The notes beneath the pieces were generated by a model. That model did not search any database. It was given only the letters and a program-made list of their open reading frames with translations, and was not told where the DNA came from. A program made the translations under genes and the position numbers. A DNA stretch of 54,187 bases from Calditrichaceae bacterium (GTDB taxonomy: Bacteria > Calditrichota > Calditrichia > Calditrichales > JBFXGD01), in assembly GCA_050178385.1 (NCBI GenBank), contig JBFXGD010000004.1, positions 1 to 54,187 of the forward strand, read 5' to 3'. Positions 39,551 to 51,333 of this stretch are shown in pieces; within the stretch, counting starts at the first letter, position 1, and each line of letters begins with the position of its first letter.

Positions 39551-41368
39551 TTACTTTTTATCAGTTGCTTTTTTAGAAGGACCCCCGCCAAACAATATTC
39601 CAAATTGAATATTCGCGCTTTCATTTATATTATGATCATCACGGTATTGTTGATACACAGCCTTCAGAAAAAAATGATAGTCTAACTGAATTCTGAGATC
39701 CGCGTAGTACCCGTAGGTTGTTTGTTTAACTTTATCCACCTGGTCACCATCTATCTCATTATAAAAATAGTTTTCTCCGATAAAAGCACCGGCTGATGGA
39801 TAGAGCGTTTCCCACAAGACAAATGGAGTAAATCCAAGATAGCCGGTCCAGCTATAGGTGGCCAAACTGTCTTTTTCAACCGAAGATGTGTTCAAATCTG
39901 TGGTTTTAAATCTAAAGCTGCCTCCGATCGTAAGGGGATTCAGATAAATGGAAATATCCCCGATGTAGCCGTAGTCATCAAGCGGATCAGATATTTCATT
40001 TGATTGTGTGATTTCGTTCAGCATCTCAGGGGGCAATTGCCAGTAATATCCGCCAAAAGAGATAAGTAACCCGTTGGAAATGTCGGAAATCCGACCATTA
40101 CCAAATGCGGTTAGACGGAAGAAGCGATTTCTTGTTTTGACAAGTTCATACTCGCGTTCCTTTCCTCGTGAATCAATAGAAAAGGATTTGTTTTTTGTAT
40201 CATAACCGTCCTTTTCTATGCGGATTGAATATTTACCGGGATCAAGTTCCATTTCATACATAGGAATAGATCCCCTGTACCGGTCATTGATAAAAATACT
40301 GGCTCCCGAGGTTCCTTTAACTGTGAAGAGACCATTAGGTGAAGGCGCTACACGCAGATTCAGGTCACGATCCCCGGTTACGTCAATATGGAGCGAATCG
40401 GAACGATGGCGACGCTTGCGGGCTTCAAGTTTGTACTGTCCGGCCGGGACTGTCCGCGAAATAGGGGTCGAGCCGATGTAATTGTTATCCAGATAAATCT
40501 CCGTTTCAGGGACTTTGCTGTCAATAATTAAGTTGCCCTCTTTACGAATAAGATTGGCCTGAATCGGTATGGATTTTACCGGATCATCATTCGGTACTAT
40601 TTCCATGGCATAAGTAAAAGGATGATAGTATGGTTTTTCCAGACGCAGAAGAATCCTCCCCTCGGGGACCGCGACCGGCAAATCAGGACTAAACGTGATT
40701 TCTTTATCATTGATAAATAAAAGCGCATCATCATGAGAAAGAGAAATGGTGATATAGCCAAACGTCGGGGTAAGCGTTAGTTCCTGGCTGACAGTTTTAC
40801 CATCCTGAACTTTGATGAACATTTCATGGGTGACATATCCTGCTTTGGTGATAATAAATTTCCATGTCTGAGCGCTCAGATTTTCAAAACGATATGGGCT
40901 AATTCTGTTGAAACCGGGAATTCCGTCGATCTGAATGTTGGCACCTGCGGGATTGGTCGTTAAAAGTAGATGACCTTTTCGAGAATTATACTTTGAATCA
41001 GCGGAAATTTTTATCACGAATACAGCGCGGGGGGCGAGCTGAATGCCCTCTTCCGATAATATAATTTGCTTGGGTTGAAAGCCATTATGGAATACTTCCA
41101 GCACACGTTCATCGGGAGACAAATAAATGATGTCGCGTCCGGGTTGATCATCCACTTTGACTACACCATTATACGCGTCATAACTGAATCCATCCATGTC
41201 GGATATAATACAGATAGCGGCGCAAAACCGGCCGTTTTCGTCTTTTACGCCTGTCATTTCATCTGAAGACTTTTCCGCTTTGCCAACAATTTGAAGTTGA
41301 GAGAGATTTTGAGCCTGAAGATACGCTGAAAATAATATAACAACCAATAACGTCCTTGTCATGAGCAT
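39551..41368 (-). CDS. PEGA domain-containing exported protein
   Basis: Signal peptide; repeated PEGA motifs (TNPAGANIQIDG, ETEIYLDNNYIGSTP...PAGQY, GASIFIND...PGKYSIRIEKDGY); beta-strand-rich C-terminus. Confidence 0.85.
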   Translation of the reverse strand: MLMTRTLLVVILFSAYLQAQNLSQLQIVGKAEKSSDEMTGVKDENGRFCAAICIISDMDGFSYDAYNGVVKVDDQPGRDIIYLSPDERVLEVFHNGFQPKQIILSEEGIQLAPRAVFVIKISADSKYNSRKGHLLLTTNPAGANIQIDGIPGFNRISPYRFENLSAQTWKFIITKAGYVTHEMFIKVQDGKTVSQELTLTPTFGYITISLSHDDALLFINDKEITFSPDLPVAVPEGRILLRLEKPYYHPFTYAMEIVPNDDPVKSIPIQANLIRKEGNLIIDSKVPETEIYLDNNYIGSTPISRTVPAGQYKLEARKRRHRSDSLHIDVTGDRDLNLRVAPSPNGLFTVKGTSGASIFINDRYRGSIPMYEMELDPGKYSIRIEKDGYDTKNKSFSIDSRGKEREYELVKTRNRFFRLTAFGNGRISDISNGLLISFGGYYWQLPPEMLNEITQSNEISDPLDDYGYIGDISIYLNPLTIGGSFRFKTTDLNTSSVEKDSLATYSWTGYLGFTPFVLWETLYPSAGAFIGENYFYNEIDGDQVDKVKQTTYGYYADLRIQLDYHFFLKAVYQQYRDDHNINESANIQFGILFGGGPSKKATDKK

Positions 41369-42504: not shown

Positions 42505-42599
42505 TTCTTACTTCCTACTTCTTACTTAAGGCTAAGGCACTAATTTACTGTTCTTACTCTTTTATCTTTTATCTTTTGTCTTTTTTCTTAATTTCCTAC
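42505..42599. repeat. Degenerate heptamer tandem repeats
   Basis: TTCTTAC-TTCCTAC-TTCTTAC (42505-42525), then TTCTTAC-TCTTTTA-TCTTTTA-TCTTTTG-TCTTTTT-TCTTAAT-TTCCTAC (42551-42599). Confidence 0.6.
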
Positions 42600-43891
42600 T
42601 TCCCTCCGTACCGCTTCATCTCATGACAGCCCGAAAAGCATGTTTTTCCATCTTCGGTTTCAACAAGTCGTACAGGCATTGTCCATTTGCCAAAGGATAC
42701 CTTTCCGGCGATGATATGTTCCTGATCGGAGCCATGCATATCGTGACAAAGCATACAGTTCCGTCCCTTATCCCGATTGACGTGCAGATAATGGAGATTT
42801 TGTTTTTCATCGCTGAAACCGGACGCTTCACTTCCCGTGTCTTCAATAAGCGAGGTCTCATGACAATTGAAACAGACCGCGAAGGATTCCGAATCTCCTG
42901 AAGTATAAGCGCTGTTTGGGAAGTTAGCGTTCAGCAGGGAGGTAAATTCGGATGAATGGGGAAGATGGCAGGCATCACATCCTCCATCCATAGCCGGGGG
43001 ATGGATATATTCTTTTTCTTGCAAACGATTCTTGATTTTTCCAGATCTCGAATACTCAACCGGTAGAGAAGTGTCGTGACATGTAAGACAAAGCTCCTCC
43101 CTCTGCTGATTCAACAATCCATCCACATCGGATGCATGAGCTTTATGACAACTGAGACAGGATCGCTCATCAGCAATTGCTTTATGGATTGAAATATTTT
43201 CAGATTGGTCTTCGTGGCATTCATAGCACTGTCCGGGAACCGGTGTTTTCAGCAGCGACGCGTATTGGGATGTGTGAGTATGATGACAATCAGAACATTC
43301 ACCTTCGTAAGCAGGGTGTACATTACTCAGTGTCAGCTCATCTTTCTGATCATCATGGCAATCGAAGCAAAGCTGCGGTGATTCCTTTCTCAGAAACGCC
43401 GCGAAATCGGATTGATGCGGATTGTGGCAATCTGTGCACTGATTGTTTTCCGCAGGGGGATGATTTACCGCCTTCGGATTATTATACAGATCATGGCATT
43501 TACCGCAAATCTCACCCTGGTCTGCGGCAATCAACAGCGCGGGGTTATTAGAACTGTGAACATCATGACAGGCGGTACATTCACCCGCGACAACCGGCGC
43601 ATGAACATCATCTTTTTCATGTTTTGAGTCATGACAATCATAACATAGGTACGGCATCTCGTTTAAAAGTGAAAATTCTTCGCCCTCCGAACCGGGATGA
43701 ATAAACCCGTTTGATTCGTGACAGGAAGCGCAGTCATCTTCGATGGGTGGATGAATATGTGATCGAACCAGATAGGACCCGTGACAGCCTGACGAGGTGC
43801 AGGATGGCTCCTCTTCCGCCTCCTGAGCAAAAAGAAGAGATTGATGAAAGAATAGTATAACTGTGGTATAAAATATGATCCGAACTGTCAT
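42596..43891 (-). CDS. Periplasmic multiheme c-type cytochrome (about 15 hemes)
   Basis: Signal peptide; 13 CxxCH plus CTSSGCH (Cx4CH) and CFSGCH (Cx3CH); paired HxP..CxxCHxxH / LCxxCH repeats. Confidence 0.92.
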   Translation of the reverse strand: MTVRIIFYTTVILFFHQSLLFAQEAEEEPSCTSSGCHGSYLVRSHIHPPIEDDCASCHESNGFIHPGSEGEEFSLLNEMPYLCYDCHDSKHEKDDVHAPVVAGECTACHDVHSSNNPALLIAADQGEICGKCHDLYNNPKAVNHPPAENNQCTDCHNPHQSDFAAFLRKESPQLCFDCHDDQKDELTLSNVHPAYEGECSDCHHTHTSQYASLLKTPVPGQCYECHEDQSENISIHKAIADERSCLSCHKAHASDVDGLLNQQREELCLTCHDTSLPVEYSRSGKIKNRLQEKEYIHPPAMDGGCDACHLPHSSEFTSLLNANFPNSAYTSGDSESFAVCFNCHETSLIEDTGSEASGFSDEKQNLHYLHVNRDKGRNCMLCHDMHGSDQEHIIAGKVSFGKWTMPVRLVETEDGKTCFSGCHEMKRYGGK

Positions 43892-43901
43892 GAGTTCATC
43901 C

Positions 43902-45869
43902 TTAGAATTTTCTTTCAACGCGCAAAAATCCGGCGTTATATGTTATCTCTTCCCCTGAAAAATCACGCCTGTAGGTTTCCAGCCCCACGGTCAGATACAT
44001 TTGCCTGAAGCGTGTCGTAAATTCACTCCGGAGAGTGGCAAGATTGAGATCAATGCCTCTTCCATCCTGAAAACGGTAGCTTGTTTCCAAACTGATTTTT
44101 GAGATACGGGAAAGACGGTATAAGAACCGGCCGGTGAGATCCCTGAATTTCTGATCTTCTTCATTTTCCGTTAATGAATAATTCCGGATATTTCCTGAGA
44201 GAGAAACATTCAGCCTGTTAAACAAATATCTGTTAAAGGAGATATAATACCGCACTGAATGATACGGAACGATGTTGCTGTTGTAGTCGTCAAGCTCAAC
44301 TCCGCCGGAAACCGGACCTTTGGACAATCGCGTGCCGAAGACTCTCTCAGAAACCGTTTTGAGTACCGCGGAATCCGAGCCCTCAGAATTATGTATATCC
44401 TGTTCGTATGAACGAAAATAGAATTCGGCAATCTGGTTAAAAACGGTTATTCTTACACCGAATGCATTACTGAATATATCGTATTGATATGATGTCTGAA
44501 GTGTCACTGTGTAATCCACCAGAACTTTTGTTCCATCTGCTATCTGACCACCCGGCAGGCGCTGAATTTCCAGAAAATCTCCGCGTATGATTATGATATA
44601 ATCGAGATTTTCCTGATAAGGGACCAATCCGGTTTCATCTGTGACTACTATACTCGCCGGATCTGCATAAGGATTCTCCAGCAATATCGTCTGTCCGTCA
44701 AAAAGCGTAATCGCTTCATTGATGATTCTCGACGCGCTTGGCATGCTGTTGCGATTTTCATTGCGATTTCTGAGCTCGTAGTCGATGGAAAGATTGCCGG
44801 TCGGTATTTTTTTTAAATAATTGAACCCGATGGTGCCGGTATTGGTAAACTGATTGAATCCGCTCTGATTAAGATCGATATACTCATAATGAGCAAAGCT
44901 TCTGAGACTTTGGTACAACTGGTGTTCAATTCTTCCGGAGATATTATGCTGGTCGGAGCTGAAAGCTTTCTGGTCAAATGAAGCAAACCGGTAATCGCCT
45001 GAAAAATCCAGATTATACGGTAAAACAAGTCTGACATTCTCACTGGCTGTCAGCCGGTCAAAGTCTTCGCTTCCGGTCTGATTATAATACCATATCAGCG
45101 AATTGAGATTATAATTCCGGTCTTCATCCAGGAATAAATTATCCCGCAGATTGACGCTTGATATTTTATTGTGTACGGATGAGTTTTGAGCGTATTCACG
45201 TGAATAATCTTCATACGAATAGGTTAAGCGGTGGTCGTCGTAACGGCTGAATGATTTACTGAATTCGGTTCTGAAATTATCCCTGGTATTCACAAAATCA
45301 CGCCCGGTCTGTAATTCCTTCTGTTCCCAGTTCTCATGAGAATAATTAATGCTAACCGGGACTATGTCATTGCGGTACGAGGCACCTCCGCCTATATCTG
45401 TTCTGTAGTTCTCAACATTGGTAAGGTATTCGCGGTTCACATAGCTGTGGCTGAAATTTGTAAATAGGTTAAATGTAAAGGGGCGTTTATTAAAAAATGA
45501 TGTATGGATATTTATTTTTTCACCTGTTTTGGTTTCCGTGCGGTTCGGAACAACCAAAAACTGATCCCGCCGGATCCCGGGATTGAAATCCATATCGGCG
45601 TTTATCACCACAAAATTGGGGTGCCAGACATAGCTTTTTGATCTTAACAGTATCTCTCCGGAAAAAATTGTGGATTCGGGTCTGTCTGATAATCCGGAAG
45701 GATAAACCGTTTCCTGCGAACGGAACTCACTTTCCATAACAACAGAACCGTTTACAGATTGCAGATGCCATTCCCCGATCGAATAAAGATCACCGTCCTG
45801 TCCCGTAGAAGGAGACAGCATCATCAAAATAAGAACCGGCACTAAACCAATTATTTTCCGTGACATCAT
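43902..45869 (-). CDS. Outer-membrane beta-barrel protein (putative cytochrome-conduit porin)
   Basis: Signal peptide, alternating amphipathic beta-strands rich in Y/F/S/N/R, C-terminal Phe (FLRVERKF), flanked by multiheme cytochromes. Confidence 0.8.
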   Translation of the reverse strand: MMSRKIIGLVPVLILMMLSPSTGQDGDLYSIGEWHLQSVNGSVVMESEFRSQETVYPSGLSDRPESTIFSGEILLRSKSYVWHPNFVVINADMDFNPGIRRDQFLVVPNRTETKTGEKINIHTSFFNKRPFTFNLFTNFSHSYVNREYLTNVENYRTDIGGGASYRNDIVPVSINYSHENWEQKELQTGRDFVNTRDNFRTEFSKSFSRYDDHRLTYSYEDYSREYAQNSSVHNKISSVNLRDNLFLDEDRNYNLNSLIWYYNQTGSEDFDRLTASENVRLVLPYNLDFSGDYRFASFDQKAFSSDQHNISGRIEHQLYQSLRSFAHYEYIDLNQSGFNQFTNTGTIGFNYLKKIPTGNLSIDYELRNRNENRNSMPSASRIINEAITLFDGQTILLENPYADPASIVVTDETGLVPYQENLDYIIIIRGDFLEIQRLPGGQIADGTKVLVDYTVTLQTSYQYDIFSNAFGVRITVFNQIAEFYFRSYEQDIHNSEGSDSAVLKTVSERVFGTRLSKGPVSGGVELDDYNSNIVPYHSVRYYISFNRYLFNRLNVSLSGNIRNYSLTENEEDQKFRDLTGRFLYRLSRISKISLETSYRFQDGRGIDLNLATLRSEFTTRFRQMYLTVGLETYRRDFSGEEITYNAGFLRVERKF

Positions 45870-45905
45870 TTTTTACCTTAAAAATGATAAAACTAATCCG
45901 TAAAA

Positions 45906-46466
45906 TTACCTGAATAAATAGGCATCTTCTCCGCCGTGCGGATTATGGCAATCCAGGCAATTTGTGTCGCCCAGATCCTGATGCGCTTCATTTTTGAAAA
46001 CATCCTCGCTCTGATGGCAGAAAAGACATAACTCTTGTCCGGTCCGAACCAGAAGATGCTCATTTTTTGACAAATGCGGATTATGACATTCCGTACAAAA
46101 TCCGGCGCCCACCGGTCCATGTAGCGCCTCGTAATTCCCGCTGAAGTCTTCATGGCACTGATAGCAAAGTCCCGGCTGTTCATCGATCAGGGCGTTTCCT
46201 TTTTCGGGAACATGGCAGGCATCACATGATTTTTCGGCATAAACCGGGTGGATTGTCATTTTCGGGCGATCGGATTTTGGAGAAACAGGAATACCTGAAT
46301 CATTGACGGTTACCGAGACCGTATCCATGGTCACCGATTGTTTCGCTTCAGGATCCGGCACTCCGTCAAAAAATGTCGAGAGTACTTTATGACGGCTTTC
46401 AGGATGACAAGCAACCAAAAGCGCGATGGCCGCCAGCAGAAAGATGAAAGTAATATGAGTTCGCAA
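45906..46466 (-). CDS. Pentaheme c-type cytochrome lipoprotein
   Basis: LVAC lipobox, FFDGVP motif, 5 CxxCH (CDACH, CYQCH, CTECH, CLFCH, CLDCH); TTG start. Confidence 0.88.
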   Translation of the reverse strand: MRTHITFIFLLAAIALLVACHPESRHKVLSTFFDGVPDPEAKQSVTMDTVSVTVNDSGIPVSPKSDRPKMTIHPVYAEKSCDACHVPEKGNALIDEQPGLCYQCHEDFSGNYEALHGPVGAGFCTECHNPHLSKNEHLLVRTGQELCLFCHQSEDVFKNEAHQDLGDTNCLDCHNPHGGEDAYLFR

Positions 46467-46540
46467 GGCTGTTCCCTGAAATTTGGTTTAGGAACAATTA
46501 TTCAGACAATACATTGTTCTCGGTTATAAGCCGTTAAATG

Positions 46541-47614
46541 TTATTCCTTCACGTCAACAAATCCGTAAACGTTGATCTTATCCGGCCCGTACTGATTGGT
46601 CACAAAAATCAGATATTGTAATTCAAATCCGGGATGAACATATTTTCGAAAATACTCAAGATTATCATAATCTATTACTACTTTGGCGGGCAGCCACATA
46701 TCACCGGGGCCTTTGTAACTGCCACCGAAAAACATCAGTAATTGATCTTCTTCATTAAAAAGCTGGACATTTTCAAAACCGGCGTCAACTACGAATAAAT
46801 TGGATTGTTTATCCACCGATATTCCTTTTGGACGTACAAATTGCCCCGCGTTTTTTCCGTAGCTGCCTATCGAACGCAGAAATTCACCTTCAGTTGAAAA
46901 TACCTTTATCCGGAAATCACCGAAATCACTCACATAAACCTGATTGTTTTTTACAAAAAGATTTGTCGGGGAGTAGAGGTTGCTCTCTCCGGTATTTTCA
47001 TCATCGGCAGGGATCGACCGTATCAGTTTGTGGTCTTCTTTTGAAAACGCCAGAATCTTATGGCTTTTTATATCGCTGATCCAAATTAGCTCATCGGTTA
47101 CAAAAACATCAGTTGGCCTCTCGATGTCACTACTGCCGAAACTGTTAACAAATTTGCCGTTTTCATCAAAAATGACGATATCGCCTCTTTCCGAATCAGC
47201 CACATAAACCAGTCCGTCAACATCCACAAAACAGTTGATCGGTTTCTTGAGCTGACCCTTTCCGGCCGGTTTCAGATAATCAAATGAACGGGTGTTCAGA
47301 TCGATGATTTCGAGACCGCCAAGCATCGTGTCACAGACATAAATTCTGCCGCGATATATAGCCAGTCCGTAGGGTTTGACGATTGACCGGCTTTCATCTT
47401 CACCCAGCACATACCGGGCAAACGCGGATCGCCGCCCGGTGATGTCGCTTGAGCTGCTGATACGGGTTAAAAACTGAATTCTCGTCGTTGCCGGAGGTGC
47501 GGGGTAGATGACGACATTATCATCATTGACAGGCTTATTGAATGACCTGCTGCATGAAATAGTCATCATTACCATAAGAAAAGACACTACACTTAACTGA
47601 AATAATTTCTTCAT
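46541..47614 (-). CDS. NHL-repeat beta-propeller lipoprotein
   Basis: TISC lipobox; YPAPPATTRIQF; NHL repeats (GQFVRPKGISVD..NLFVVD, PGDMWLPA). Confidence 0.88.
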   Translation of the reverse strand: MKKLFQLSVVSFLMVMMTISCSRSFNKPVNDDNVVIYPAPPATTRIQFLTRISSSSDITGRRSAFARYVLGEDESRSIVKPYGLAIYRGRIYVCDTMLGGLEIIDLNTRSFDYLKPAGKGQLKKPINCFVDVDGLVYVADSERGDIVIFDENGKFVNSFGSSDIERPTDVFVTDELIWISDIKSHKILAFSKEDHKLIRSIPADDENTGESNLYSPTNLFVKNNQVYVSDFGDFRIKVFSTEGEFLRSIGSYGKNAGQFVRPKGISVDKQSNLFVVDAGFENVQLFNEEDQLLMFFGGSYKGPGDMWLPAKVVIDYDNLEYFRKYVHPGFELQYLIFVTNQYGPDKINVYGFVDVKE

Positions 47615-47703
47615 CGAATTACACTCATATTCAGTATATTGAATTCACAATCCGTCTGGATTAACCGTTTAGCTCCGCCGCGGCGAATGTTATCATCCTT
47701 GAT

Positions 47704-48327
47704 TTATTTATTATGACAAGTCAGGCACAGGGCGCTCGATGAATTAGAGATTACGAGAAGTTTGCTGAAACCCTGGCTGTTATGAACATCATGACAGGAA
47801 GCGCACTGCACTTTGCCGCCGATTAACAGATCGTTGCTGATGGTTCCGCCCATGCCTGAATTCGCGGTGGAAGGATCATACAATCCACCGTCTGAATTTG
47901 CCAGCGCGGCGTCGTATGTGAATGAAACCGGATGATCATCACTAAGATCGGTACCTACAAGGCTGTTTCCTGTGATAAAATGGCTTCCACCTGTCTGCCC
48001 GCCGTAATTGTCAACGGCTATTGTACCGTCGTGACAGCTCATACAAAGTTTTGATGAGGCATCCGGCTGACCCACAGTGGCGTTCATGGACGCGCTGCTG
48101 TATGGAGTGAATGTGGCGGAGGTCATCTCATGATTCCATAGCGGGGCGTCACTGACAGATACATCGGCATTGTGAGTGGTGTGGCAGACGATGCAGATCT
48201 GGTCACTTGTATTCCAGGCGGCGGATGAAAAATCGTGTGCAGACCCAACAATGGACTGAGCGAACGCGCTACCGCCGATCATAAAGAATAAAATCACGGC
48301 CAGGTTAAAAATTGATAATCGTTTCAT
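47704..48327 (-). CDS. Tetraheme c-type cytochrome, OmcE-like (putative nanowire subunit)
   Basis: Signal peptide AFA-QS; SI..S.HDFS, QICIVCHTTHNA, PLWN, LCMSCHDG, GTDLSDDHPVSF, VQCASCHDVH, LCLTCHNK terminus. Confidence 0.85.
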   Translation of the reverse strand: MKRLSIFNLAVILFFMIGGSAFAQSIVGSAHDFSSAAWNTSDQICIVCHTTHNADVSVSDAPLWNHEMTSATFTPYSSASMNATVGQPDASSKLCMSCHDGTIAVDNYGGQTGGSHFITGNSLVGTDLSDDHPVSFTYDAALANSDGGLYDPSTANSGMGGTISNDLLIGGKVQCASCHDVHNSQGFSKLLVISNSSSALCLTCHNK

Positions 48328-48375
48328 GACTGTTCCTTTCAATTGTTTGTTTTTACAATATGAAAAAAATTCCTG

Positions 48376-50070
48376 CTAATAAGTTTTTGGGTTATGATCT
48401 TCACCATGACATACAAGGTAACACGTGCCTCTGGTAGTCCCCTGATCAATAAATTCCAACCGCGTACCGGAGGGAAAAACAACGGATATATCAAAATTAA
48501 TAAGATGTGTATTGTTGGTCGTGTTCCCCTGTAAACTACTGATACCGTGAGGATCATGGCAGACATTGCAGGGGGTATCTTCTGCAACAATATGTCTCCA
48601 GTGGACTTTTCTTGCGAAACTTCCTGAGCTGTTTATAATTGTGTTACGGTCATGGCATTCATAACATAACCTGTAGTTGTCATAGGATTCCGTTGTATAA
48701 TCCGCTGTGACATACTGAAATTTCAATATCTGTGGATATATGGATCCGTGAGGTCCTGCCGGAGCATCCGTGCCGTCACTGGCATGGCAATTTGTACAGT
48801 AAATGATGCTGGAGGCGGTATAGGGTGATATCATTGAATTAACGTTTGGATTTTTTCCGGCCGCTTCGATCGGGTGATAAGAGGGATTCCCCGGATCATA
48901 CTCGAGACGTACATTAGATTGTTCAATCAATCTGATGGTCGGGCTGCCGGGTTTATCAGGACTGTCGGCATGGCATTTATAGCAAAGTTCGTATTGATAT
49001 TGTACCGGATCGACCGCTGTTCCGTTTGTGTTTAATCCGCTTGTGCCGGCAATGAATCCGTTGGCGTTTGGCGCGCTGGCAGCAGCGCTTCTGCTGGCAT
49101 GGGGGTTGTGACAGTCTTCGCACTCCACATGCCTGTTTTGAACAGGAATATTTTCTCCCGGATCGTGAACGCCGGCATAGTTATAAACATCATGAATATA
49201 TGGTTTGGTGGCAACAATTGTCTGAATGTTTTTAGCGGCGACATTCCCGTTATGACAGTCGAGACAGTTGTTCTCTTCAGTGAGTGAATTCAACAGACGG
49301 TCATGACTCTCTGAGTTGTGTGGATTATGACAGTTTTCACAGCCGTTTTCCGCCACATTCGTGTAGGGTGTATGAAACCATGGATCGTTGCCGGAACCGT
49401 TCCACGTCGCGATCGAATTTTTGTGTGATGAATTGGTCCAGTCAGTTTTCTGATGACAATAGAGACAAAGATCAGAATTTTGATTAGTAGCAACCAGAAA
49501 TTGTCCGTATAAATCAATATGCGGGTCATGGCAGGAAGTGCACTGAACGCGCTCGTTTGCCAGTTTAACCGGTCCGGTAAGAACGGCGGGATCGCTTAGT
49601 TCACCGTCCGCGGCGGATAAAGCGGAATTATACAAAAATGATACCGGGTGATCATCCGATAAATCAGTGGATAAATTTTTATTTCCCGATGGCATCATGG
49701 TAATTCCGCCGGTGAATTCAATGGGAGCCGGCCTACTTAAAACATTACCAAGAGCGATGGTTCCGTCATGACAGGAAAGACACAACAGGGAAGCGCCGTC
49801 CGGCTGACCGGGTGACGCCTGAGCGGTGGAACTGCCGTAAATTGTATAGGTTAATCCGGGATCTTCACGATTCCATAAGGGTTGCCGTGGGCTGCTTTTA
49901 TGCGGAGTATGACAAAAAACACAGATTTCAGATTCACTGCTGGCTTTAACCGTTCCTGGCCCGGTGGCGGATAAATTATGAACCGAATTCACAATTGATT
50001 GTGATAACGTGAAACAGGGAATCATCAACAGAAAGGTAAAAGTAATCAGTAACTTATTTTTCATCGTCAT
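48376..50070 (-). CDS. Multiheme c-type cytochrome (about 12 hemes) with an N-terminal OmcE-like module
   Basis: Signal peptide; 11 CxxCH plus CYLVCH; the first four hemes sit in a module collinear with the downstream tetraheme protein. Confidence 0.9.
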   Translation of the reverse strand: MTMKNKLLITFTFLLMIPCFTLSQSIVNSVHNLSATGPGTVKASSESEICVFCHTPHKSSPRQPLWNREDPGLTYTIYGSSTAQASPGQPDGASLLCLSCHDGTIALGNVLSRPAPIEFTGGITMMPSGNKNLSTDLSDDHPVSFLYNSALSAADGELSDPAVLTGPVKLANERVQCTSCHDPHIDLYGQFLVATNQNSDLCLYCHQKTDWTNSSHKNSIATWNGSGNDPWFHTPYTNVAENGCENCHNPHNSESHDRLLNSLTEENNCLDCHNGNVAAKNIQTIVATKPYIHDVYNYAGVHDPGENIPVQNRHVECEDCHNPHASRSAAASAPNANGFIAGTSGLNTNGTAVDPVQYQYELCYKCHADSPDKPGSPTIRLIEQSNVRLEYDPGNPSYHPIEAAGKNPNVNSMISPYTASSIIYCTNCHASDGTDAPAGPHGSIYPQILKFQYVTADYTTESYDNYRLCYECHDRNTIINSSGSFARKVHWRHIVAEDTPCNVCHDPHGISSLQGNTTNNTHLINFDISVVFPSGTRLEFIDQGTTRGTCYLVCHGEDHNPKTY

Positions 50071-51073
50071 CCTTGTTTGTCAGTTCAAACATCTGTATTC
50101 TCGCGTTATAGCTGTCTGCTACATAGATGCGGTCATGGTGATCAATAAAAATTCCGGAGGGAAGCCAGAATTCACCATGCCCCCGGCCCTGTTTCCCGAA
50201 ATAGGAGAGAAAATTTCCTTCTTTATCGAAAATCTGGACTGTATGAAATAGCCCGTCAACCACATAAATATGTCCGCGCGAGTCAGTAGCGATACCTTTC
50301 GGGGATGAAAAATACCCGCTGGCGTCTCCTGCTTCGCCAAAAATATTAACGAGCTCACCGGTTTTATTAAAAACCTGAATCCTGAAATTCATTGAGTCAA
50401 CGATATACACATTACCAATATCATCGATCGTGAGAAAAGTGGGAAAATTGAATTCACCGGCTCCGGTGCCCCGGTGTCCGATGGTCCTCAGCAAATTGCC
50501 CTCTTTGTCCAATACCTGAATTCGGTGCTTCCCGGTTTCCGCCACCCAGATTTCATTAGTTAAATCGGAAAAACCGATTCCCGTCGGCCTGTCAATTTTT
50601 AATGATGGATTTAATAATCCTGATTTTCCCGATGTAATATTTTGTATGTAAATTTGATTGATTTTTGAATCGGTAAGAAGCAGTGAATATGAATTAAACC
50701 TGCACATGCAGATAAGTGACGGAAAACCGGATTGATTATTCTGATAGTAATTTTTGATCTGACCTGAATTTTGATCAATAAATATCAGCGTCTTTGACCC
50801 CTGATCCAGCACCCAGATGGAATCAGGATTCTCCGTGAAAACAGAAACCGGTCTTATTAACGGGCGGAAATCATTTCCAAAAATAAAATTGAACATTAAT
50901 TTGGCGAAACCGGGTTTAGCCTTCAAATCTTCGGATGATGAAAACTGTCCCGTCCATTTAACGGTGCGGTAATCGGAGTCAGATGTAACGGACTGATTCT
51001 CGGCCGCCATGTTCAGCACCGGTAATAAAATCAGAATGGTAAGTGATACGATCCAAAAATTCCGTTTTATCAA
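50054..51073 (-). CDS. NHL-repeat beta-propeller exported protein
   Basis: NHL repeats (GEFNFPT, VYIVDSMNFRIQVF, FSSPKGIATDSRGHIYVVD, GEFWLPSGIFID); probable TTG start at 51073 with aggga RBS. Confidence 0.9.
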   Translation of the reverse strand: MIKRNFWIVSLTILILLPVLNMAAENQSVTSDSDYRTVKWTGQFSSSEDLKAKPGFAKLMFNFIFGNDFRPLIRPVSVFTENPDSIWVLDQGSKTLIFIDQNSGQIKNYYQNNQSGFPSLICMCRFNSYSLLLTDSKINQIYIQNITSGKSGLLNPSLKIDRPTGIGFSDLTNEIWVAETGKHRIQVLDKEGNLLRTIGHRGTGAGEFNFPTFLTIDDIGNVYIVDSMNFRIQVFNKTGELVNIFGEAGDASGYFSSPKGIATDSRGHIYVVDGLFHTVQIFDKEGNFLSYFGKQGRGHGEFWLPSGIFIDHHDRIYVADSYNARIQMFELTNKDDDEK

Positions 51074-51333
51074 AACCAATTCCCTATAATTACAGTGAAT
51101 CCAGCCATGTGAAAAAATATACATATTTGGTCCGAAAATCAACTTAATCATCAAAAAGCAAATAACCAATGTAAGATAATGGCTTTGTTCAGCCCTTGTA
51201 TGTGCTCTATATCAATTTCTGATTTTATATCTGTGTATCAAAAATATTCAGTGACATTGAAGATATAAAAATATTTTGCGGTAGAAAATGATTATTTAAA
51301 AAAGTTGTACGGGTAGGGAAAAAGAGAAAATCA

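Follow-up and report, generated by a model that had tools for sequence, protein, structure and literature searches.

The field has yet to settle how cytochrome nanowires start and end, how they are anchored and how they make their electrical connection with the cell. The question is raised by a gene cluster on a 54,187-nucleotide stretch of DNA (hereafter the window) from a Calditrichaceae bacterium (GenBank assembly GCA_050178385.1, contig JBFXGD010000004.1, positions 1 to 54,187), in which a 564-residue multiheme cytochrome encoded on the minus strand (48376..50070, stop codon included) carries an OmcE-like module at its N-terminus, next to a gene for a free-standing OmcE-like tetraheme protein. 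A minimal OmcE gene cluster has been described in a study that asks for the anchor and the tip of the wire and states that OmcE operons encode no candidate for the tip (PMC13712944), and nanowire anchoring and secretion have been called speculative (PMC12307469). A preliminary description of the window, made from its letters alone, had proposed that the 564-residue protein serves as an adaptor, base or tip of a filament. Our findings lend this idea partial support - through the fusion itself, its co-inheritance with the tetraheme and the predicted polarity of their contact - and the best explanation of the gene product is a secreted 12-heme c-type cytochrome assembled from two known kinds of parts.

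The N-terminal third of the protein is a complete OmcE-type module. Behind a signal peptide read from the sequence (residues 1-23, 50002..50070, with a presumed cleavage between TLS and QS), residues 24-208 (49447..50001) hold the first four hemes (C50, C97, C177 and C202) together with four histidines outside the heme motifs (31, 57, 141 and 184); the four motifs follow the order found in OmcE, and in a set of 117 relatives each of the eight positions is conserved to 97% or more. That the residues encoded by about 50001-49446 repeat the architecture of the neighbouring protein had been noticed before and is borne out by the translation, which contains every motif quoted, residue 24 starting at 50001 and residue 208 ending at 49447. 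The neighbour, tet212, is a tetraheme of 212 amino acids (47704..48342, minus strand, likely start ATG at 48327) recognised by BLASTP and by matches in the PDB, and its pairwise alignment with the fused module gives 88 identical positions out of 219 (40%) at an expect value (E) of 2e-44, far above chance, covering tet212 to its last residue. Both proteins match the solved OmcE filaments of Geobacter sulfurreducens (7tfs; 4.8e-32 for the 564-residue protein, 8.6e-28 for tet212) and Desulfuromonas soudanensis (9yuq; 5.9e-25 and 1.3e-23). In an AlphaFold2 model of the 564-residue protein based on a 117-row alignment (predicted local distance difference test, pLDDT, 93.8; predicted template-modelling score, pTM, 0.90), residues 30-207 superpose on 7tfs_A with a VIA Z of 14.7 and a root-mean-square deviation (rmsd) of 1.9 Å over 174 residues at 41% identity, and Foldseek finds 7tfs with E 6.3e-11 and TMt 0.72. 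The fused module shares with OmcE the fold, the four CXXCH motifs with their four histidines, the PLWNR motif and an SI(V/I)N(S/T)xH arm with its histidine, and a Gln precedes this first conserved histidine (His31) by 7 residues in 56 of 58 relatives, which marks the N-terminal arm of the fused protein. OmcE, however, stops 2 residues past heme 4 and polymerises with itself, whereas the protein studied here goes on for another 356 residues and eight heme sites. Among NCBIfam families, the doubled-CXXCH domain is the only one that scores above a curated cut-off for the 564-residue protein.

As to this extension, the preliminary description had counted eight more heme motifs. Eight sites do follow the OmcE module, but only seven of them are CXXCH and the eighth is the variant CX3CH: cysteines of canonical motifs lie at residues 50, 97, 177, 202, 244, 269, 317, 363, 425, 469 and 501, and the last motif is CYLVCH (residues 550-555, 48406-48423), so that the protein has twelve heme sites only if the variant is counted. 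This terminal motif is well kept among the 117 relatives (C550 97%, C554 98%, H555 93%), as is the histidine H559 (77%) of the 9-residue tail GEDHNPKTY behind it, whose last six residues (559-564, 48379..48396) belong to a family motif CHGxxHxPxxY; tails of 9-11 residues are found in 67 of 72 relatives, and the model folds this C-terminal end into a beta-hairpin. Counted over the family, 27 histidines reach a conservation of at least 93% for 24 axial positions, the extras being H302, H314 and one of H490 and H493.

The extension proper (residues 235-558, 48397..49368) is best described as an eight-heme module, a paralogue of the C-terminal part of another cytochrome of the same cluster, one of 440 residues (42596..43918, minus strand) with 13 CXXCH and 2 variant motifs, and the whole protein as a fusion, in line with the preliminary description. 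When aligned by hhalign with a profile of 10 clean sequences of the 440-residue family, the extension runs collinear with residues 152-435 (probability 99.8, E 6e-29, 247 columns) right up to a CX3CH that both proteins share at the end, and BLASTP between the two yields 24% identity at E 2e-10. Better scores from an enlarged 440-residue family profile (E 2e-38 and 2e-36) were discarded as 12 of its 23 added rows were members of the 564-residue family itself. Modelled alone from a 46-row alignment, the C-terminal part reached a pLDDT of 45.5 and was left out of the fold search. Its last ~285 residues recur on their own in reading frames of ~360-480 amino acids in many genomes of the class that a Geobacteraceae metagenome-assembled genome (MAG) belongs to, and the same module ends much larger proteins of 1,235-1,764 amino acids (P0243, P0249 and P0252); it looks like a reusable cytochrome module that closes with CX3CH.

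Between the two parts lies a junction (residues 209-234, 49369..49446) that falls outside the stretch matched to the 440-residue cytochrome and is conserved in its own right. His216 (codon 49423-49425) is shared by 115 of the 117 relatives (98%) and sits exactly 9 residues past the heme-4 histidine in 74 of 77, while Trp223 and Asn224 are nearly invariant. The resulting pattern, H-x-x-S-x-x-x-W-N, resembles the N-terminal arm of the free tetraheme (H36...W43-N44), and hhalign places residues 213-282 of the fused protein on tetraheme residues 33-113, that is, on the arm plus hemes 1 and 2 (probability 94.4, E 8.6e-8). Even the spacing adds up, 9 residues being the 2-residue C-terminal tail of the tetraheme plus 7 residues ahead of the arm histidine, an arm length seen in 17 of 58 loci; 6 residues are commoner (32 of 58). 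We infer from these patterns that the junction probably occupies the C-face of the OmcE module, at the place where the arm of the next subunit would sit, and that His216, by analogy, may act in cis as the sixth ligand of a heme, a role that in filaments falls to the next subunit. In OmcS, His16 ligates heme 5. It had been proposed that the extension takes up the second interface of the module, and this agrees with what we find, since the chain runs on covalently from that very face, via the conserved junction, into the eight-heme part.

For a predicted complex, the mature tetraheme (residues 29-212) and the mature fusion (24-564) were modelled without hemes, each with its own alignment, and gave an interaction prediction score from aligned errors (ipSAE) of 0.75 (0.76, 0.71 and 0.75 in the three runs) against 0.00 for the best of three controls; of 80 solved complexes, 58 come up to the mark applied to such scores, as do 2 of 110 mismatched pairs. 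Contacts agree to at least 95% between the runs, and both partners keep a pLDDT of at least 89. On the tetraheme, the interface (residues 81, 83-86, 126, 129, 134-137, 183, 200-203, 206-207 and 210-212) is the C-face, where the motif of heme 4 and Cys183 of heme 3 take part together with the DDHP loop (134-137) and the C-terminal residues 210-212; on the fusion (residues 25-27, 34, 36, 47-51, 54, 56-61, 63-65, 172 and 184-185), it is the N-face, made of arm residues 25-27, 34 and 36 and the region around the heme-1 motif (47-65). All three runs reproduce the head-to-tail polarity of OmcE and none makes use of the C-end of the fusion, which is the way of joining through the OmcE module that had been put forward.

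Is the fusion a local accident or does it travel with the tetraheme? Independent phylogenetic distribution of the two would have spoken against the adaptor idea and was named as such by the preliminary description; what the loci show is co-location. A search with the 564-residue family matched 7,103 of 8,000 scored candidates, the best 120 of which are all 548-604 amino acids long, and yielded 618 clusters at 50% identity with E up to 1e-30; the closest named locus, from a Calditrichaceae MAG, is 93% identical. Within a set of 80 loci, mostly from Calditrichota, Ignavibacteriota and Bacteroidota, fusion and free tetraheme share the locus in 64, and 15 of the 16 loci that lack the tetraheme are cut short on one side. 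A gene for an NHL-repeat propeller lies directly upstream of the fusion gene in 66 of 70 testable loci, of 65 tetraheme genes, 55 are followed by the gene for a second NHL-type propeller, and either half of the cluster may come first. Many Bacteroidales loci have ~3.3 kb between the fusion gene and the tetraheme gene, a space that, for instance at L015:10677-13567, encodes a sigma-54-type response regulator and a sensor histidine kinase whose outer part carries a CXXCH. The gene order tetraheme - NHL - (pentaheme) - barrel - NHL - fusion - (large cytochrome) recurs in 78 further loci from Gamma- and Betaproteobacteria, Omnitrophota, Planctomycetota, Verrucomicrobiota, Acidobacteriota, Nitrospirota and other phyla, 74 of which contain all three parts of the fusion; the NHL gene lies upstream in 74 of 74 testable loci. 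Relatives are also on record from the cultured strains Carboxylicivirga marina N1Y132, Fontivita pretiosa B-254 and Thiohalobacter sp. IOR34. In the class of the Geobacteraceae MAG mentioned above, which was reached via a published 16S primer pattern, 121 of 201 genomes give some match, about 50 of the matches listed are full-length and six loci (L214-L218 and L221) hold the full cluster. One genome of this class, G036, has three related loci (L221, L222 and L223), two of which place a fusion-like gene behind an NHL gene. The doubled-CXXCH domain had no match in 14 control genomes, and 11 of its 12 matches in the genome of the window fall inside the cluster at 42596-51169. The fusion is ancient and is co-inherited with the tetraheme/barrel cluster, which is itself very widespread.

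What the tetraheme partner is bears directly on how the fusion may be read. Like the two solved OmcE chains, tet212 ends 2 residues after its last CXXCH, a tail length strictly kept in 65 of 65 free tetrahemes, all of which also have the arm histidine. They differ from OmcE in a ninth conserved histidine, H71 in the motif PLWNH (62 of 65 and, in a second set, 47 of 47), which stands where Arg is found in the fused module and in the OmcE chains of known structure. Three kinds of OmcE-like sequence can be told apart: the fused modules (PLWNR), the PLWNH tetrahemes with nine conserved histidines and an NHL gene downstream, such as the one that adjoins the fusion gene here, and a canonical type of tetraheme with PLWNR and about eight histidines, found behind an nhl371-like gene at 12 loci of the Geobacteraceae-MAG class and matching the solved OmcE chains by motif. 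In a quick tree search, 76 fused N-modules and 65 free tetrahemes were split by a single branch (Shimodaira-Hasegawa-like approximate likelihood-ratio test, SH-aLRT, 99), each side grouping by taxon. A second, more divergent free tetraheme with 41-48% identity to tet212 occurs at five loci (L011, L025, L031, L059 and L074), often after the large cytochrome gene.

Our tentative preference, held at somewhat less than an even chance, is that the 564-residue protein serves an OmcE-type polymer as its polar end-piece or adaptor. The N-face of the fusion, with its tetraheme-like arm, would dock head-to-tail on the C-face of a tetraheme just as successive subunits do in OmcE filaments, while its own C-face would be closed to further subunits, the chain passing there into the arm-like junction whose His216 would give the heme its sixth ligand in cis. 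Because a C-face so blocked cannot accept another subunit, the fusion could occupy only a single end of the tetraheme assembly that it joins, be it a polymer or a lone subunit, and would lengthen the heme chain by eight hemes. A comparable logic governs the terminator, anchor and tip subunits of chaperone-usher pili, where a variant subunit with only one polymerisation interface comes to stand at the end (an analogy drawn in PMC13712944); those proteins are unrelated, though, and here a putative histidine-heme bond and packing would take the place of the donated beta-strand. The far end of the rod would contact the barrel or conduit, and so form a base or anchor, because its module is common to the conduit-type 440-residue cytochrome; we therefore slightly prefer a base or anchor over a distal tip. 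Polymer formation by the tetraheme and the cell location of the fusion are what we infer here, on top of the domain make-up, conservation, synteny and predicted interface polarity laid out above. That the family as a whole represents the missing anchor or tip of OmcE-type nanowires, capping a heme that otherwise goes without its sixth ligand and wiring the filament to the barrel/conduit or to a mineral, is a bolder version, which we regard as possible but doubtful.

Several points weigh against the end-piece. Organisms with this type of cluster have not been observed to make filaments, and the tetraheme next to the fusion gene belongs to the nine-histidine PLWNH paralogue group rather than to the filament-forming PLWNR group of OmcE. 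An ideal anchor of an OmcE wire was envisaged as an OmcE-like protein with nine histidines and four hemes (PMC13712944), and since the tetraheme has just these and comes from the same cluster, it could itself be a self-satisfied cap or a 1:1 partner. Fused modules, PLWNH tetrahemes and PLWNR tetrahemes form a trichotomy that the tree leaves unresolved, also when it is rooted with internal modules, whose branches are 7.8 and 9.9 long. In G036, moreover, the 8 kb to each side of the canonical-type OmcE locus are free of such a fusion. As for the chemistry, 27 conserved histidines for 24 axial positions mean that counting histidines does not fix the ligand scheme, and the assignment of the heme that receives a trans-histidine in OmcE leans on the analogy with OmcS. 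The lack of a compatible interface with the tetraheme had been named as evidence against an adaptor, and the complex model, in passing its controls, points the other way; since homologous filaments (7tfs and 9yuq) are already solved, however, this pass may be memory, and in the heme-free model His31 is absent from the confident contacts. Finally, a likeness to MtrA, the rod in the MtrB barrel (6r2q chain A), counts for the end-piece, with a qualification: the model of the 564-residue protein is confidently a single body, both are elongated chains with close hemes and MtrA is the second-best structure match (Z 7.6, rmsd 4.5 Å, 231 of 265 residues over model range 22-450; Foldseek E 0.21, TMt 0.50), but the Z is middling, such values being common, and in a profile search the extension had no significant sequence match to MtrA (E 0.24).

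These reservations feed the main rival, a discrete porin-cytochrome complex in the manner of MtrCAB, where one tetraheme and the 12-heme protein make up a fixed 16-heme rod with the barrel and no long wire is formed. We consider it unlikely, yet it has much to recommend it: the 1:1 model passes its controls as it stands, a nine-histidine tetraheme could be self-sufficient, MtrA comes second among fold matches, and the content of the cluster matches that published for Uet of Candidatus Tenderia electrophaga, which has been depicted as just such a discrete complex, with UetA as tetraheme, UetC as barrel, UetH and UetI as NHL proteins and UetJ as an undecaheme cytochrome beside an NHL gene (10.1101/2022.05.06.490989). 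The 564-residue protein fits the description of UetJ - eleven CXXCH, secreted (as read here from the sequence), adjacent to NHL and part of a tetraheme and barrel cluster - and for UetJ itself an extracellular, long-bar-shaped form has been predicted and an interaction with UetA suggested (10.1101/2022.05.06.490989). Also, a "potential UetJ" of Gallionellaceae with 11-12 hemes bears the same annotations, doubled-CXXCH or cytochrome c3 family, as relatives of the fusion do (PMC10734462). The likeness is judged by gene content, however; the 80 named loci and the 120 proteins listed include no Tenderia record, and Uet has in addition triheme c7 proteins, a cupredoxin and a peptidyl-prolyl isomerase (PPIase), none of which was seen in this window. 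Against this rival, too, the free tetrahemes retain what marks a polymerising OmcE, namely the arm histidine and the strict 2-residue tail (65 of 65 each). The roles might even be reversed, with the 12-heme protein polymerising through its arm His31 into the last module of the next copy and the tetraheme serving as cap or anchor, for which its nine histidines, four hemes and place in the same cluster would qualify it on the view taken in PMC13712944. It is the fused module, after all, that shares PLWNR and the arm with filament-forming OmcE, the fused protein that matches 7tfs better than does the tetraheme, and the canonical OmcE tetraheme that stands behind an nhl371-like gene in the position of the fusion. 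What makes this improbable to our minds is a C-terminus quite unlike that of OmcE, with its CX3CH, its 9-11 residue tail and its beta-hairpin, and a model that put the tetraheme on the N-face in 3 of 3 runs with both ends of the fusion free.

The extension could alternatively consist of two more, degenerate OmcE repeats, which would turn the protein into a covalent OmcE trimer. By hhalign, residues 209-405 align with 24-208 collinearly over positions 2-185 of 185 (probability 98.3, E 1.8e-14) and with the tetraheme family (E 1.1e-14), residues 395-564 align with 209-405 (probability 97.1, E 6.8e-11), reversed-profile controls stay at E 0.069 and 0.64, and each unit can be assigned four heme motifs and an equivalent histidine (His31, His216 and His399). 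Yet the background in this family is high, the OmcE module reaching E 1.4e-10 and residues 209-405 reaching 7.2e-16 against the clean profile of the 440-residue cytochrome, to which the extension as a whole is far better fitted than to OmcE; the last third can be aligned in two registers that differ by half a repeat and score alike (6.8e-11 and 1.2e-10); and in a HMMER search of the PDB the profile made from the extension reaches 7tfs only at E 0.58, ranked under 6qvm and 6i5b. We hold the trimer to be distinctly improbable. An ordinary stand-alone multiheme cytochrome of the outer surface or periplasm, using the OmcE-like part as a scaffold with no docking role, is highly improbable in our judgement: relatives are indeed annotated as just "cytochrome c3 family protein" or "hypothetical", and the curated cut-offs give nothing beyond the doubled-CXXCH domain, but tight synteny with tetraheme, barrel and propeller genes across phyla, an arm and junction conserved to the residue and a complex model that withstands its controls speak against it.

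The end-piece reading also has to be seen against the cluster as a whole, which comprises seven genes on the minus strand (42596-51169) for two NHL propellers, four cytochromes and one putative barrel. Directly upstream of the fusion gene lies its partner, an NHL-repeat beta-propeller gene (50054..51169; Pfam NHL 1.1e-22). Past tet212 follow the second NHL-type propeller, partner of the tetraheme, with a lipoprotein-like TISC signal (46541..47614), a pentaheme cytochrome recognised by its motif count, with a lipobox-like LVAC (45906..46466), and a 655-residue putative outer-membrane barrel (43902..45869), so named for its conserved position and having no Cys and no Pfam match. As described for OmcE clusters (PMC13712944), the locus thus combines a large barrel, here a putative one, with beta-propeller proteins, one of them lipoprotein-like. 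The barrel gene and the gene of the 440-residue cytochrome share 17 bases (43902-43918), an overlap which suggests coupled translation of the two. A scan for terminator and attenuator consensus sites returned 13 against 9.5 expected in shuffled sequence, none of them in the interval that follows the tetraheme gene at 47704. Close by on the downstream side of the cluster, a 605-residue protein (39551-41368, minus strand) has three PEGA domains and a carboxypeptidase-regulatory-like domain.

We are not aware of an OmcE-like module having been described in a 12-heme protein; the literature searched holds none, with supplements (the gene lists of Fig. 4D in PMC13712944 and those of the Uet papers) lying outside that search. 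Of the papers cited, 10.1101/2022.05.06.490989 and PMC10734462 make no mention of OmcE and PMC13712944 makes none of Uet or an undecaheme cytochrome, so the connection between Uet and OmcE seems not to have been made in these three texts. The finding links Uet, an electron-uptake cluster of bacteria that oxidise iron or cathodes, with the nanowire family, and it widens the range of OmcE-type systems beyond the five phyla that PMC13712944 names. For the question of how cytochrome nanowires begin, end and are joined to the cell, the fusion offers a concrete, testable candidate for an end-piece and, as cultured carriers are on record, the tests are practical. If the bolder version of the end-piece reading is true, "Uet" porin-cytochrome clusters and OmcE nanowire clusters would be one ancient and widespread machine, with a range from Calditrichota and Bacteroidota to Gammaproteobacteria, Planctomycetota and the relatives of Geobacter.

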